Sequence record: OQ845958.1
Direction: 5' to 3' (one strand)
Source of the DNA: Escherichia phage pEC-M719-6WT.2
Length of the DNA: 64,000 nucleotides
The notes under the pieces are model-generated. The model was not told where the DNA came from and searched no databases. It saw only the letters and a program-made list of their open reading frames with translations. The position numbers were made by a program, and so were the translations under genes. Of the stretch, positions 37,365 through 52,954 are shown one piece after another (the stretch's first letter is position 1; the number at the start of each line of letters is the position of its first letter).

Positions 37365-37658
37365 ATGAAAAAGTTATTAATCGCGGCAATTCTTACCGTA
37401 GCATCATGTGGTACAGCTCCAGTTACTGCTGGACTTGATAAAGACCTTTGTGAGTGGTCTATGACTGCTGACCAGACTGATGTTGAACATCAGATTTATG
37501 CTGATATTATGAACATAACTAAACGTGACCGCCCTGATATGGTTAAAGAAGTATCTGACAAATTGACTTCTGGTGACGTTATGCAGTATAACTATGTTCT
37601 GTATTGCGATGCTTCATTTGACAATAGCAAAATTGTTCAATGGGTTACAGGTGAATAA
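37365..37658 (+). CDS. sp: Spackle (periplasmic superinfection exclusion protein)
   Basis: 97 aa (same as T4 Sp); signal peptide; DKDLCEWSMTADQT and QYNYVLYCD match remembered T4 Sp; located between 41 and 61. Confidence 0.75.
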   Translation: MKKLLIAAILTVASCGTAPVTAGLDKDLCEWSMTADQTDVEHQIYADIMNITKRDRPDMVKEVSDKLTSGDVMQYNYVLYCDASFDNSKIVQWVTGE

Positions 37659-37659
37659 A

Positions 37660-38097
37660 ATGATTAACAGAAATTTAGTTATCAAAAAACTTCGCTGTAA
37701 AAATCCAAATGCACAGGCATACCGGGTGTTTTGGAGCGACGAAATTCAATACCTGGGTTATTTTCTTGTTGATAGTGATGATAGAATTACGTTTGCTCAT
37801 AAGCTTCTTAACAAAGAATTAAACCATTGGCAAGAACTTATTGCAGTCAAGTCTAAATTATTTTCGCGCAATACAATGCACCAATTGGTTTATTTTTTCG
37901 CTGATGGTATTCCTGACAAGGTTGAGTTTGATGGGTTTGAATTTAAAGACATCAATCCTAACAATGAATTGAATGACAGTATTGTTAATATGGGTATTCC
38001 TGGTAAGTACATCAAAAACAGTCTTTTGAAAATTCTGGAAACCCCTGTATATTCAGTTGACGACCAAATTTTTAATGCCTTTATGAAGCGAGATTAA
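37660..38097 (+). CDS. hypothetical protein, paralog A (C-terminal DDQIFNAFMKRD)
   Basis: 145 aa from ATG 37660; C-terminal 11 aa nearly identical to next gene. Confidence 0.45.
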   Translation: MINRNLVIKKLRCKNPNAQAYRVFWSDEIQYLGYFLVDSDDRITFAHKLLNKELNHWQELIAVKSKLFSRNTMHQLVYFFADGIPDKVEFDGFEFKDINPNNELNDSIVNMGIPGKYIKNSLLKILETPVYSVDDQIFNAFMKRD

Positions 38098-38098
38098 T

Positions 38099-38467
38099 AT
38101 GTATATTCAAAGCGATTTGTCTTATCTGAATTTTGAATTAGTTAAAAATAATGATGGTAATGCTCATTATGAATTCCGCGAGCCTCGTTATAATCAGGCG
38201 ATTGGTTATATTATTGTTAAAGATGGCGTTATCATAAAGGCTCGCTCATTTATGGTAATGAATGGGCCTTATGAAGATACTCGTGGCTATCCATTTGATA
38301 AAAAGAATGTACGCGATTGTGCAGCGTGGATAACCGGAAATCCTGAAATTGGGGTCATGCTATCTACTGAAGCAAATGACATTCTGGATGCTGGCTGGGT
38401 TAAATCTCAAGAACCGCCTACTGATATTGATGACCAGATTTTTAATGCTTTCATGAAGCGAGGTTAA
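38099..38467 (+). CDS. hypothetical protein, paralog B (C-terminal DDQIFNAFMKRG)
   Basis: 122 aa. Confidence 0.45.
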   Translation: MYIQSDLSYLNFELVKNNDGNAHYEFREPRYNQAIGYIIVKDGVIIKARSFMVMNGPYEDTRGYPFDKKNVRDCAAWITGNPEIGVMLSTEANDILDAGWVKSQEPPTDIDDQIFNAFMKRG

Positions 38468-38468
38468 T

Positions 38469-38660
38469 ATGACTGCAATGTGTACGGGCTCTAAGATTTC
38501 GGTCTTCCAGATTTTTGAAGAATATGAAATCGTGTCGCAAGACCAAGAAGCAATCCATGTTATCGCTGATGATGGTGTTACCTGGATTATTCCGTTGTAT
38601 CATGAAGACACCTATGAAGTGACTGATGCAAATGGCGATAAAGCTATCTTCGTTGTATAA
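38469..38660 (+). CDS. hypothetical protein
   Basis: 63 aa. Confidence 0.4.
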   Translation: MTAMCTGSKISVFQIFEEYEIVSQDQEAIHVIADDGVTWIIPLYHEDTYEVTDANGDKAIFVV

Positions 38661-38663
38661 ATA
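38656..38663 (+). promoter_or_regulatory. T4-type late promoter (TATAAATA)
   Basis: exact octamer overlapping stop of upstream gene, 18 nt before SD/ATG of 38681. Confidence 0.5.
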
Positions 38664-38680
38664 GCGGAAAGGGGGGTGTT

Positions 38681-38848
38681 ATGAAAACATTCAAAGATTT
38701 TATCAATGAAGATATGGTTGCCGGTGATGCAGGTGGAAACCCAACTAATATCGCAACAGGTACCACTTCCGGGGCAGTTGTCAATAAAGGTCCTGAACAA
38801 ATCCCATCAAAAAAGCGTAAGAATAAAGACGATAAACCTACAGTATAA
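38681..38848 (+). CDS. small late protein with capsid-targeting-sequence-like N-terminus (candidate internal/injected peptide)
   Basis: 55 aa, hand-translated; N-terminus MKTFKDFINE resembles T4 internal-protein CTS MKTYQEFIAE with I-x-E prohead-protease site; late promoter; basic C-terminus. Confidence 0.45.
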   Translation: MKTFKDFINEDMVAGDAGGNPTNIATGTTSGAVVNKGPEQIPSKKRKNKDDKPTV

Positions 38849-38880
38849 TGGTCCTCCGGGACCATTGAAATGAGGAAACT

Positions 38881-39909
38881 ATGTCATATATTGATAGAGA
38901 ATTTGCAGTCAAAGCTTTATCGTATCAACCACGTTACAGAGAAGTCACCGGGAGCACATTTAAGGCAAACTGTCGTTGTAAGGTTTGTGGTGACTCCCAG
39001 AAAGATTCGCACAAGGCTCGATTCTGGGCGTATACCAATCCATCTGATGGTGCGGTTTACGTGAAATGTTTTAACTGTGACTACTCCACGCATATAAGCA
39101 AATACATAAAAGAGTTTGAGCCGGATTTGCACCGGGAATATATGGTTGAGAAGTACAAGGAAAACGCCTTCGGTCGACAACGTAATGAAGTTGCAGAAGC
39201 TCCGAAAGAACCAGAAAAAACTCCGGTTATTGAAGAGCTTGCTTTTTGTGAAAGAATTGATACTTTACCAGAAGAGCATCCGATAGTTAAGTATGTAAAA
39301 AGTCGGTGTATTCCGAGCAATGTTTGGAACCGGTTATGGTTTACAAACAAATGGCCTGCATTAGTTAACTCCGTTAATCCTGGGACGTATAAGAATGAAA
39401 CGAATGAACCACGCTTGGTTATTCCTATCTTCAACGGCAAAAAAGAAATCGAATCTTTCCAAGGACGAGCTCTTCGCAAAGATGCACCACAAAAATATAT
39501 CACAATCAAAGCTCACCCAGAAGCTTCCAAAGTCTATGGCGTAGACAAGATTGATGAGCGCAAGCGCGTGTGGGTAATGGAAGGTCCGATTGATAGTTTG
39601 TTTATCCCTAACAGCATTGCGATAACTGGTGGAACATTAGCATTGGAAGCCGTTCCTTATGCTGAAACCCGAGTATGGGTAATGGACAACGAGCCAAGAC
39701 ATCCGGATACGATTAAACGTATGAAGAAGCTCGTTGAAGCGGGTGAAGCCGTTATGTTCTGGGACAATGCACCATGGCATACGAAAGACATAAATGAGAT
39801 GGTTAAATCGGAGGGCGCAACCCCTGAACAAATCGAATCATATATGGCCGATAACATTGCTCAAGGGTTGATGGCGAGAATGCGACTTTCGAAGTACGCA
39901 AAAGTTTAG
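38881..39909 (+). CDS. 61: DNA primase gp61
   Basis: 342 aa (same as T4 gp61); N-terminal zinc ribbon CRCKVCG...CFNCDY; toprim-like core. Confidence 0.9.
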   Translation: MSYIDREFAVKALSYQPRYREVTGSTFKANCRCKVCGDSQKDSHKARFWAYTNPSDGAVYVKCFNCDYSTHISKYIKEFEPDLHREYMVEKYKENAFGRQRNEVAEAPKEPEKTPVIEELAFCERIDTLPEEHPIVKYVKSRCIPSNVWNRLWFTNKWPALVNSVNPGTYKNETNEPRLVIPIFNGKKEIESFQGRALRKDAPQKYITIKAHPEASKVYGVDKIDERKRVWVMEGPIDSLFIPNSIAITGGTLALEAVPYAETRVWVMDNEPRHPDTIKRMKKLVEAGEAVMFWDNAPWHTKDINEMVKSEGATPEQIESYMADNIAQGLMARMRLSKYAKV

Positions 39910-40831: not shown

Positions 40832-40839
40832 TATAAATA
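40832..40839 (+). promoter_or_regulatory. T4-type late promoter (TATAAATA) for soc
   Basis: exact octamer about 30 nt upstream of soc ATG. Confidence 0.55.
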
Positions 40840-40870
40840 CACCCGTAATTAAACAACAAAGGAGTTAATT

Positions 40871-41104
40871 ATGGGTGGTTTCGTTAATATCAAAACCTTT
40901 ACGCATCCAGCTGGTGAAGGTAAAGAAGTTAAAGGTGTTGAAGTATCTGTTCCGTTTGAAATCTATTCAAATGAGCATCGTATTGCGAATGCACACTATC
41001 AGACTTTTCCTTCCGAAAAGGCCGCTTATGTCACCGTAGCGTCTAGTGCAGCTGATTGGCGAACTAAGAACGCGGCGATGTTTACGCCTACCCCAGTAGT
41101 TTAA
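40871..41104 (+). CDS. soc: small outer capsid protein Soc
   Basis: 77 aa; YVNIKTF and AHYQTFPSEKAAY match remembered T4 Soc; late promoter; next to 56. Confidence 0.85.
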   Translation: MGGFVNIKTFTHPAGEGKEVKGVEVSVPFEIYSNEHRIANAHYQTFPSEKAAYVTVASSAADWRTKNAAMFTPTPVV

Positions 41105-41109
41105 TTATA

Positions 41110-41133
41110 GGGAACCTTCGGGTTCCCTTTTTG
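41110..41133 (+). terminator. rho-independent terminator
   Basis: GGGAACC-TTCG-GGTTCCC hairpin plus T5. Confidence 0.65.
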
Positions 41134-52801: not shown

Positions 52802-52954
52802 ATGAAAAAGTGGTGGGTTACGTTGTCAAATGGCGAATACGGTTATCTGTGGGCCGATACTAAACCTCTGTTTGCATCCTTTGTCACCATTATGTGCGAG
52901 ACTTGGGATGGCGAATACTATACCGCATATGGGCAAGTCTATAAAGTTGAGTAG
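52802..52954 (+). CDS. small W/Y-rich protein (50 aa)
   Basis: hand-translated; late promoter and SD upstream, terminator downstream. Confidence 0.35.
   Translation: MKKWWVTLSNGEYGYLWADTKPLFASFVTIMCETWDGEYYTAYGQVYKVE

Follow-up and report, generated by a model that had tools for sequence, protein, structure and literature searches.

A conserved small protein encoded beside the T4-type primase gene resembles the maturation junction and N-arm of the major capsid protein

INTRODUCTION

T4 head assembly is among the best-studied morphogenetic pathways. [quoted passage not shown] Residues 66 to 105 of gp23 are disordered in unexpanded heads, and the N-arm and N-fist form only after expansion (PMC9546572, PMC9958956). 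The prohead core proteins gp22, gp67, and gp68 are cleaved to small peptides, while other cleavage fragments are thought to leave via capsomer pores (PMC9958956). In the capsid-targeting sequence (CTS) of the internal proteins (IPs), positions 4 and 7 function in targeting and positions 8 and 10 in processing (review, PMC9026906).

Here, we examine gene 61.1, which is kept beside the primase gene across the T4 superfamily and whose function is discussed in no paper found by our literature search; a CRISPRi phage-genomics preprint likewise holds no data on it. The analysis was performed on a window of 64,000 nucleotides from Escherichia phage pEC-M719-6WT.2 (OQ845958.1), for which an original prediction had proposed a late-expressed, packaged 55-residue peptide of the internal-protein type.

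RESULTS

The ORF upstream of the primase gene is gene 61.1

The plus-strand ORF at 38681-38848 encodes 55 amino acids, MKTFKDFINEDMVAGDAGGNPTNIATGTTSGAVVNKGPEQIPSKKRKNKDDKPTV. Its product is 100% identical to VR7 gp61.1 and 72% identical to T4 gp61.1, and residues 1 to 52 match PHROG 1823 (E 1e-32), which comprises the short forms of the T4 gene 61.1 orthologous group, the long forms being in PHROG 2086. These matches identify it as the T4 gene 61.1 ortholog. The ORF of the original prediction is a real gene. Gene 61.1 is annotated in T4, VR7, and SP18, so the ORF was not overlooked by annotators. The features of the locus are as follows.

38469-38660, plus strand: upstream 63-aa ORF of the RB69 ORF033c / VR7ORF036c type, whose last sense codon and TAA stop overlap TATAAATA
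38656-38663, plus strand: T4-type late promoter motif TATAAATA, gp55 type, spanning -13 to -6; predicted RNA start near 38669
38669-38677, plus strand: good Shine-Dalgarno (SD) sequence, AAGGGGGGT, with which the predicted 12-nt late leader begins
38681-38848, plus strand: gene 61.1 ortholog, 55 aa, pN/pS about 0.1
38681-38710, plus strand: CTS-like propeptide MKTFKDFINE (codons 1-10), ending I-N-E; predicted gp21 cut after Glu10
38711-38794, plus strand: core (codons 11-38), homolog of the gp23* N-fist (residues 66-93) and the best-conserved region in the family
38807-38836, plus strand: tail SKKRKNKDDK (codons 43-52), in which a conserved KK(R/K)K patch precedes charged residues that vary
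38846-38867, plus strand: hairpin UAAUGGUCC-UCCG-GGACCAUUG, 9 bp, UNCG-type loop, beginning at the stop codon (dG -18.4 kcal/mol, z -3.85)
38881-39909, plus strand: gene 61, DNA primase, the invariant downstream neighbour

The gene lies between sp and 61 and away from the ip loci, which are found elsewhere, both as originally placed; the flanking products share 65% identity with T4 Sp on the 5' side and 60% with the T4 primase gp61 on the 3' side. Gene 61.1 also borders an anti-toxin island with dmd, tifA, and adfA, which is compatible with an anti-defence role. Neither the Pfam nor the NCBIfam libraries returned a match for the short or long forms, and in the PHROGs libraries only families of "unknown function" were matched.

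Present in more than a thousand phage genomes, 61.1 spans T4 to KVP40-type vibriophages and is strictly syntenic, with orthologs always directly upstream of primase in 42 IMG/VR loci. A primase-like ORF (..[VI]D.E[FY]A.[RK]A..) starts within 2-47 nt in the window and in 40 of 43 loci; two loci, L011 and L015, have an inserted ORF. The pN/pS of the ORF is 0.09-0.22, with differences at 60-72% of synonymous sites, and 13-18 residues are invariant across the short forms. The ORF is under strong purifying selection, and the hypervariable class to which it had been assigned does not fit a gene conserved and syntenic from T4 to KVP40-type phages.

The leader resembles the capsid-targeting sequences of internal proteins

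The N-terminal MKTFKDFINE shares 6 of 10 residues with MKTYQEFIAE of T4 IPII and IPIII and 7 of 10 with MKTYQEFINE of VR7 Ip6. The latter leader is also that of VR7 ORF153c, and Ip9 has MKTFNELFNE. In T4, the gp61.1 leader MKTFKEFIKE has its first seven residues in common with IPI and matches IPII/III at 7 of 10 positions. All four functional CTS positions are retained in the window leader (F4 as Y/F, F7, I8, and E10). When the 820 frames in the window that open with ATG and span 40 aa or more were scanned, only MKTFKDFINE reached 6/9 identity to a CTS, the next best frame having 4/9. These comparisons support the leader as a genuine match to the CTS of the window lineage's own internal proteins, bearing out the likeness first noticed, and the I-x-E site is present at the sequence level as I8-N9-E10, of the type cut by gp21. 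A profile search against internal-protein families had been proposed as a check, and hhalign of the 61.1 family against IPI, IPII, and IPIII found nothing.

The predicted mature part aligns with the gp23 junction and N-arm

Residues 2-46 of the window ORF align without gaps to residues 57-101 of gp23, with 44-46% identity over 37-45 residues. Ungapped BLASTP to T4 gp23 57-93/101 gave E values of 6e-9 and 2e-10, and hhalign of the 61.1 family with gp23 gave a probability of 96% (E 1e-9). When the family profile was compared to all PDB sequences, gp23 was the sole match at E <= 0.001 (best E 2e-5), the next lying near E 1. In the alignment, Glu10 falls on Glu65, where gp23 is cleaved during maturation, and the Gly/Thr-rich part coincides with the N-fist of gp23*. 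Common to both proteins are the cleavage Glu and the Gly/Pro turn residues (GD, G, NIA, G, T/S-G-A-V, and GP), and the invariant core residues of 61.1 are A14, G15, D16, G19, I24, G27, T28, G31, V34, N35, K36, G37, and P38. The Gol/Lit region of gp23 lies just downstream of the copied segment. The head-length (ptg) mutations A66D, A94V, and G97S fall inside that segment (PMC9546572).

A low-complexity artefact was considered and rejected, as the composition-adjusted BLASTP E value is 2e-10, the alignment is gap-free, the shared residues include others than Gly, and no PDB match besides gp23 is significant.

Further downstream, the KK(R/K)K patch aligns with V99-R100-R101 of gp23. The Gly/Thr-rich remainder and basic tail of the original prediction are both present, but the former is a gp23 homolog and the latter is not net basic in T4, where the tail KKKKEESKEKEE is net acidic. 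By sequence comparison, 61.1 is made of three pieces: a 10-residue IP-type leader, a copy of gp23 from the junction to the N-fist, and a Lys-rich patch.

None of the other T4 head proteins compared matched 61.1. No similarity to 61.1 was seen for gp24, and hhalign against gp20, gp21, gp22, gp24, gp67, and gp68 found nothing. The Pfam Gp23 model (PF07068) covers residues 88-517 of T4 gp23, and the 55-aa ORF has no Pfam or NCBIfam match to an HK97-fold body. Because the Gp23 model begins at residue 88 and goes unmatched, leaving 61.1 with no HK97-fold body, the database label "major capsid domain-containing protein" is misleading. The AlphaFold2 (AF2) model of the short form has low confidence throughout. 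In the long form, a helical N domain is modeled with a pLDDT of 77-88 and the core is low-confidence and disordered; a Foldseek search of this model against the PDB returned nothing below E 4.

In place of the gp23 propeptide upstream of residue ~48, the short forms carry a CTS and the long forms, of about 154 aa, an unrelated helical domain of about 100 aa. In the wider family of this N domain (contexts L128-L179), no T4 primase or head-gene homolog was found within 4 kb, and the surroundings offered no hint of function.

The predicted cleavage site and capsid-type cores are conserved across the family

A Glu directly precedes the MVAGD core in 115 of 116 nonredundant family contexts, and P3 is L, I, F, M, or V in 87% of them, usually giving [LIFMV]-x-E. 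This pattern holds for the short and the ~154-aa long forms alike. Cleavage of 61.1 by gp21 after Glu10 is predicted from these positions; a T4 virion mass-spectrometry study confirming gp21 sites makes no mention of gp61.1.

Marine-type phage members have a different core (E|PTN..IDxFDPxL..RR). Marine cores best match the N-arms of marine-type T4-like capsid proteins and enteric cores match enteric N-arms, with 29 of 29 significant matches concordant, at the level of clades rather than same-genome gene pairs. For marine-type members, one locus (L180) was found in looking for a capsid gene on the same contig, and its capsid gene was absent from the 80 loci listed. Among enteric phages, the same-genome comparison of 61.1 core and gp23 N-arm is uninformative, the gp23 segment being almost invariant there. 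The marine/enteric concordance suggests selection for capsid mimicry.

A late promoter motif precedes gene 61.1 in many lineages

The exact late promoter and good SD of the original prediction were both found where described. At 38656-38663 on the plus strand, TATAAATA shares bases with the TAA stop codon (38658-38660) that ends the upstream 63-aa ORF and lies close to the gene, although at 17 nt from the ATG rather than the 18 first counted. From the published promoter geometry (PMC2988020), the RNA is predicted to start near 38669, giving a 12-nt late leader that contains the SD. The latter, AAGGGGGGT, ends 3-4 nt before the ATG at 38681, and an SD-like GGAG/GGGG is kept in relatives.

Across the whole window, TATAAATA occurs 4 times versus 4.6 expected, indicating no enrichment. 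Across representatives of 17 lineages (53 kb on the gene strand), ATAAATA occurs 10 times in total, with 9 of these located 19-34 nt upstream of a 61.1 homolog. The exact TATAAATA is upstream of 61.1 in six lineages and N-ATAAATA in three; TTAAATA replaces the motif in 6 of the 17, and neither is seen in the T4 group or in one further group. Among the known T4 variants of the late promoter motif is AATAAATA (PMC2988020). A chance promoter was also considered; though the window count is at expectation, this was rejected given the concentration of ATAAATA at one position in related loci.

The motif does not extend to every relative. It is kept in many, but (T)ATAAATA is absent upstream of 61.1 in T4 and its closest relatives, and the T4 61.1 transcript is classed as early, with gp61.1 undetected in the time-resolved infected-cell proteome (PMC9697503 Table S2).

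The hairpin at 38846-38867 is not followed by a T-run in the window lineage. Single-sequence folds gave equivalent hairpins in most lineages, their stems differing yet complementary, and four of these are then followed by T-runs. The hairpin probably forms a 3' boundary or stabiliser of the late transcript. A conserved TA(T/A)(A/G)ATGG motif lies between 61.1 and gene 61. In T4, a distance of 2 nt separates the stop codon of 61.1 from the ATG of gene 61; most lineages have the two genes set apart by a hairpin or terminator and a spacer of 23-47 nt.

DISCUSSION

The reading that we favour, and to which we give about an even chance, is that 61.1 is a prohead-targeted, gp21-trimmed peptide imitating the gp23 maturation junction and N-arm; we infer its packaging and cleavage from sequence. 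Gene 61.1 would be transcribed early by read-through and receive a late boost from its own TATAAATA, with the hairpin marking the 3' end of the late unit. The leader and junction would bring 61.1 into the assembling prohead beside the scaffolding core, as for the IPs and gp23, where gp21 would cut I-N-E|D after Glu10, the equivalent of Glu65|Ala66 in gp23. This would leave a 45-residue peptide starting DMVAGD, presumably disordered alone, whose N-fist-like segment may contact the partners of the gp23 N-arm, either the scaffolding core before expansion or neighbouring gp23* afterwards, while the KKRK patch may touch DNA. Because of the proposed prohead entry, gp21 trimming, and N-fist-like contacts, its role would be morphogenetic or structural, that of a minor head component or assembly modulator, and not that of a host-specific injected effector. 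The analysis gives a precise hypothesis: a gp21 substrate with a known leader and a predicted cut and product. We count the marine/enteric concordance in its favour.

Counting against this reading are the early T4 transcript with its undetected protein (PMC9697503), the silence of the T4 virion mass-spectrometry study on gp61.1, the lack of (T)ATAAATA in T4 and its closest relatives and the TTAAATA of six further lineages, the adjoining anti-toxin island, the clade-level scope of the concordance, and the chance that the 45-residue product might simply exit by the capsomer pores. A further point against it is that, in papers on the T4 head at 3.3-3.4 Å, unassigned density is mentioned only under gp24 (PMC9546572).

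It is also conceivable, if rather unlikely, that 61.1 stays unpackaged in the cytoplasm, where it would present the gp23 maturation junction in free form, serving as a competing substrate or brake for gp21, as a decoy for host sensors of gp21 activity or capsid protein, or as a competitor in the gp23-scaffold contacts that set head length. The exact positional copy of the cleavage junction is consistent with such a decoy or regulator, as are the ptg mutations within the copied segment, the early T4 transcript without a late promoter, and the adjoining anti-defence island. Furthermore, gp21 activity alone triggers a CBASS CD-NTase through an I/LxE loop (PMC12991175). However, the IP-type leader is a packaging signal, needless in the cytoplasm, the late promoter is kept in many lineages, and the long and cargo-bearing forms resemble propeptide-cargo proteins.

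An injected effector of the IP type would be packaged by its CTS, trimmed, bound to DNA through the basic tail, and injected, countering a first-line host defence as IPI does GmrSD. The best-conserved part of 61.1 copies a capsid protein and not a defence target, the T4 tail is net acidic, the ip loci lie elsewhere, and 61.1 keeps its sequence and position between T4 and KVP40-type phages, unlike the lineage-specific, hypervariable IPs; we therefore consider this quite improbable, despite the IP-type leader and I-x-E site, the Lys-rich patch, the neighbouring dmd, tifA (61.4), and adfA (61.2), and the recent demonstration of IPIII as a host-range factor. For an IPI-like anti-restriction role, we find no support beyond the leader.

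A function linked to the primase, whether as an upstream element controlling gene 61 through coupling or transcript boundaries or as a replication peptide, appears very improbable. The constant position upstream of gene 61 throughout the 43 loci, the 2-nt gap in T4, and the conserved motif and hairpin between the genes all point in this direction. Yet the amino acid sequence itself is strongly conserved, not just the frame, and its relatives are head proteins and not replication proteins; coupling to gene 61 is also less likely because of the hairpin or terminator and 23-47-nt spacer in most lineages. Finally, a functionless relic, left by the decay of a duplicated capsid gene, is hardly credible, although the protein is short, predicted to be disordered, and undetected in the T4 proteome. 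The selection signal (pN/pS about 0.1 with heavy synonymous divergence) comes close to refuting it, and the 13-18 residues invariant across the short forms, the retention of the gene in more than a thousand phage genomes, and the conserved promoter, SD, and hairpin also speak against it.

Returning to prohead targeting and capsid imitation, a wider and distinctly unlikely generalization is that the 61.1 family copies the capsid junction and N-arm from a separate gene, co-evolves with them, and acts as a general capsid-docking tag. Its parts would be the propeptide, protease site, N-arm mimic, basic patch, and sometimes a cargo domain. If so, T4-like heads would hold a so far unseen component, 61.1 could fill N-fist sites that lack a gp23 neighbour at vertices, and the internal proteins would have derived their 10-residue CTS from the junction of the capsid protein itself. 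Alternatively, the copy could act as a decoy, either for the prohead protease or for immunity sensing that protease. One junction motif links the capsid propeptide junction, the CTS used in T4 protein-packaging technology, and a conserved orphan gene. Docking by N-fist imitation would show how accessory proteins attach to an HK97-type lattice, which could matter for capsid engineering or for how phages handle a protease apparently sensed by host CBASS.

Among known systems, the T4 internal proteins IPI, IPII, and IPIII and Ip6/7/9/10 share with 61.1 a leader of about 10 residues, MKT[FY]xEF[IL]xE, the I/L-x-E end for gp21, and small size, and T4 internal proteins likewise have early as well as late expression signals. 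In contrast to 61.1, which is conserved, lies next to primase, and has a mature part copying gp23, the IPs are products of hypervariable genes at the ip loci, and their mature parts are unrelated; their packaging and injection, and the anti-restriction activity of IPI, are demonstrated, whereas packaging of 61.1 is a prediction. With gp23, 61.1 shares a segment disordered when unassembled (for 61.1, by AF2), but gp23 has an HK97-fold body and 61.1 has none. A further likeness is to gp22, gp67, and gp68, proteins assembled in the prohead and trimmed by gp21 to short peptides, as predicted for 61.1, and some gp21-trimmed core peptides stay in the T4 head. These proteins have no sequence relationship to 61.1 (hhalign probabilities <=1.3%), and 61.1 lies outside the 20-24 head gene cluster, which is ~85 kb away in T4. 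The soc unit (window 40832-41128) offers a parallel in organization: like 61.1, it is a small head-related gene (for 61.1, by inference) that shares the early strand with early genes, is preceded by a TATAAATA of its own, and is followed by a tetraloop hairpin. The soc hairpin is a full terminator with a T-run, while that of 61.1 has none, and Soc has been shown to decorate the outer capsid and, unlike what is predicted for 61.1, undergoes no proteolytic processing.

Gene 61.1 is a conserved gene between sp and the primase gene

The phage is T4-type and belongs to the VR7/SP18 group (Gaprivervirus), whose members share 96-99% identity with the window over 500 bases around the finding. The locus reads as follows.

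38656-38663, + strand: late promoter motif TATAAATA, overlapping the TAA stop of the upstream 63-aa ORF
38669-38677: good ribosome-binding site AAGGGGGGT
38681 (ATG)-38848, + strand: gene 61.1 ORF, 55 codons

Motif, Shine-Dalgarno sequence and ORF all lie where the original prediction described them. The ORF was there described as missed by a 60-aa track cutoff; it is already annotated as gene 61.1 in T4 and VR7. Its identity to VR7 gp61.1 (100%) and T4 gp61.1 (72%) makes it the T4 61.1 ortholog. Its predicted placement also holds: sp, 65% identical to T4 Sp, lies on one side and primase gene 61, 60% identical to its T4 counterpart, on the other. The family, PHROG 1823, is labeled as of unknown function, and no published function for gene 61.1 was found in the literature searched. 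Set against T4 and other relatives, the ORF has pN/pS values of 0.09-0.22 despite differences at 60-72% of synonymous sites, which indicates a selected protein-coding gene.

Two adjacent ORFs, 37573-38097 and 38099-38467 (+), both end in ..DDQIFNAFMKR[DG], a C-terminal tail also present in the anti-DarT factor of T4, gp61.2/AdfA (IDDQIFNAFMNRG). Outside the tail, the 122-aa ORF shows no alignment to gp61.2. Otherwise different proteins of the anti-toxin island thus seem to carry a common modular tail.

The predicted mature part of 61.1 resembles the gp23 N-fist

When 50,697 phage genomes were searched in translation, each genome gave two matching sites, one at gene 61.1 and one at the major capsid gene. 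T4 gp61.1 aligns without gaps to residues 57-93 of T4 gp23, the major capsid protein (46% identity, E 6e-9), and the window peptide aligns to gp23 57-101 (44%, E 2e-10). When the family profile was run against every PDB sequence, gp23 was the sole significant match (E 2e-5 or 7e-4, gp23 entries), with the next matches near E 1, and profile-profile comparison of the 61.1 family with gp23 gave 96% probability. Other T4 head proteins compared with 61.1 gave no match.

Glu10 of the window peptide aligns exactly with gp23 Glu65, after which the prohead protease gp21 cuts to remove a 65-residue propeptide (PMC9546572). Residues 11-38 align with residues 66-93 of the mature form, gp23*, which comprise the 25-residue N-fist and the start of the N-arm (PMC9958956). 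In the unexpanded head this gp23 segment is disordered, lies inside and is presumed to contact the scaffolding core, and the head-length mutations A66D, A94V, and G97S map to it; after expansion it goes outside, where it binds four neighboring subunits and contributes to the Soc site (PMC9546572, PMC9958956). The gp23-like part is the best-conserved part of the 61.1 family. There is no Pfam match for 61.1 because the Pfam Gp23 model begins at gp23 residue 88, and the database name "major capsid domain-containing protein," which these peptides owe to the gp23 relationship, is misleading.

The leader is of the internal-protein type

The T4 record has IPII and IPIII starting MKTYQEFIAE/A and IPI starting MKTFKEFTST...ITE/A (junctions marked by a slash); T4 gp61.1 starts MKTFKEFIKE/D, its first seven residues being those of IPI. 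In VR7, of the window's own lineage, eight ip-locus ORFs start MKTYQEFITE, MKTYQEFINE, MKTFNELFNE, and similar. The window leader, MKTFKDFINE, matches Ip6 at 7/10 positions. Positions 4 and 7 of the capsid-targeting sequence (CTS) carry targeting, and 8 and 10 processing (review of Black's work, PMC9026906); the window leader keeps all four, F taking the place of Y at position 4. The window has 820 frames that start with ATG and span at least 40 aa; of their N-termini this one alone has 6/9 identity to any CTS, the next best reaching 4/9. Because the functional positions are kept and the match is unique, the CTS resemblance is real and specific. The original prediction thus stands as to the leader, and it overlooked the gp23 homology of the mature part. 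The literature searchable here mentions neither the CTS match nor the exact register of 61.1 with the site where gp23 is cleaved.

The eight VR7 ORFs (locus L127) form two clusters, at 56.7-57.6 kb and 67.9-69.5 kb, and ORF127c, 153c, 154c, and 156c are annotated as hypothetical only. Only ip9 is preceded by TATAAATA; this promoter is doubtful, since the motif arises from the Tyr-Lys-stop with which the preceding ORF ends, and the leader is only ~4 nt.

The end of the gp23 propeptide, AQAFGSFLTE (residues 56-65), has the pattern [FY]-x-x-F-[IL]-x-E in common with IP CTSs and 61.1 residues 1-10, and the segment ..KEIFKELPLFE of longer 61.1 relatives resembles MKTFKEFIKE. From these likenesses, the CTS may descend from the capsid protein's own junction via a 61.1-like intermediate.

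A protease-type site is retained across the family

At the same place before primase, many T4-like phages (CC31, S16-type, RB43-type, Acinetobacter, and KVP40-type) carry a long form of ~154-164 aa (PHROG 2086), built as follows.

Part 1: conserved ~100-residue helical N domain, no recognizable fold
Part 2: [L/M/I]-x-E, after the N domain
Part 3: core MVAGD...NIASGTTxG...GP, as in the short form
Part 4: KRKR patch, after the core

In the long form, gp23 similarity reaches about ten residues further upstream, to gp23 residue 48. A Glu lies no more than 3 residues ahead of the core in 115 of 116 non-redundant family contexts, the exception being a fragment that begins at the core, and P3 is L/I/F/M/V in 87%. 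As read from these residues, a gp21-type site is kept whether a 10-residue CTS or a 100-residue domain precedes the core, the strongest indirect argument that 61.1 would be cut at this Glu.

Searching 1.8 billion representative proteins with a profile brought up 1,861 relatives, mostly via the N domain. Some, on marine-type phage contigs, have a different core (e.g., ..INEE/PTNVIGDSGENDNIDTFDPIMKGMRRR), which best matches the marine T4-like capsid N-arm (..LFEAA/PTNNISASGGIDKYDPIMIGLVRR; E 9e-8), while enteric-type cores best match enteric capsid N-arms. This concordance holds in 29/29 significant matches, and weaker cases behave alike, suggesting that the core is kept similar to its cognate capsid N-arm, the tracking being at clade level.

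The N domain itself (~100 aa; PHROG 2086/18642) is a very large family, with 1,861 representatives at 50% identity. Its members (proteins P0022-P0140 and P0141-P0289; loci L128-L180) often carry other C-terminal parts, varied and up to 490 aa, mostly on marine-type contigs. One contig (L180) divides the protein between two genes: the N domain is encoded at 1468-2037, and a second ORF, of CTS-like/N-arm-like/cargo type (MKEFNTFKQELTE/T..AGYDPVMGF..), at 2216-2599.

Gene 61.1 resembles a self-contained late unit

TATAAATA is found four times in the 64-kb window against 4.6 expected, with no excess; each copy lies on the gene strand where a gene ends, and one precedes soc. We compared 42 loci with 61.1 relatives, sorted into 17 lineages by upstream sequence. 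Exact TATAAATA lies 19-34 nt ahead of the start codon in six lineages, N-ATAAATA is upstream in three, and TTAAATA in six; the T4 group and one other lineage have no such motif. AATAAATA is a recognized T4 late-promoter variant (PMC2988020). The predicted late-promoter motif is present in exact form, and ATAAATA recurs at its position in 9/17 lineages. The gene strands of these loci, 53 kb in all, contain only ten ATAAATA, nine of which fall at the 61.1-upstream position, formal probabilities for this being overstated because the lineages are related. The motif persists although the upstream genes vary. Given the motif at -13 to -6, late RNA would start near 38669, with a 12-nt leader opening with the Shine-Dalgarno sequence.

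The 61.1 stop is directly followed by a hairpin of 9 bp whose loop is UCCG (dG -18.4 kcal/mol, z -3.85). A hairpin occupies the equivalent site in nearly all non-T4 lineages, with differing stems, each fully complementary, and in four lineages a T-run follows. With its positionally conserved motif and this hairpin, 61.1 looks like a self-contained late unit set among early genes, like soc about 2 kb downstream, its fully canonical counterpart.

40832-40839, + strand: soc late promoter, followed by a 26-nt leader
40871-41104, + strand: Soc ORF, 77 aa
41109-41128, + strand: soc terminator hairpin C(UUCG)G with T-run

Each TATAAATA (2891, 38656, 40832, and 52755, +) lies at the end of one ORF, just ahead of a small one. 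For the first this is a 43- or 97-aa ORF at 2922/2971; for the second, gene 61.1; for the third, soc (40871); and for the fourth, a 50-aa ORF located at 52802, beyond topoisomerase gene 39. The pattern points to several small late units within the early region. In 12/12 aligned lineages, TA(T/A)(A/G)ATGG is found overlapping the stop codon of 61.1 or following it (window 38842-38849; equivalents in loci L007-L044). The hairpin comes directly after this motif and the primase ATG about 30-45 nt downstream; the motif might serve as the -10 element of a gene 61 promoter.

T4 is the exception. There the 61.2 stop abuts 61.1, 2 nt lie between the 61.1 stop and gene 61, and no ATAAATA occurs on the gene strand within the 5 kb examined. 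The T4 61.1 transcript is classed as early by RNA-seq (PMC9697503, Table S2), which is no argument against a head role because ipII and ipIII transcripts are classed likewise (same table).

Proposed role in the head

Known until now as an annotation, 61.1 is read here as a CTS-bearing head protein, presumably processed by gp21, whose mature part copies the N-fist. It would enter the prohead together with the core and be cut by gp21 after Glu10, and the 45-residue product (DMVAGD...) would apply its N-fist-like segment to the partners of gp23's own N-arm. Since the gene is conserved and syntenic and its conserved part is a capsid mimic, we lean, with about even confidence, to a morphogenetic or structural role over an injected anti-defense one. 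Against a head role count the lack of a late promoter in T4, the failure to detect gp61.1 in a T4 proteome study (PMC9697503), its absence from mention in a T4 virion mass spectrometry study, and the possibility that a 45-residue fragment leaves through capsomer pores (PMC9958956).

We think it unlikely that 61.1 acts in the cytoplasm as a decoy or regulator, whether its target is gp21, protease-sensing immunity or the control of head length; a CBASS CD-NTase is set off by gp21 activity via an I/LxE loop (PMC12991175), and 61.1 adjoins the dmd-tifA-adfA anti-toxin island. An IP-like injected effector, as originally predicted, would account for the leader, but conservation, synteny and capsid mimicry make it distinctly improbable. 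A role tied to primase expression, the gene next to 61.1, seems to us very improbable, and a functionless relic is nearly excluded by the selection signal.

The finding ties an orphan gene of a model phage to the capsid junction and to the CTS. The original prediction had assigned 61.1 to a hypervariable class; unlike the internal proteins, it is conserved and syntenic.
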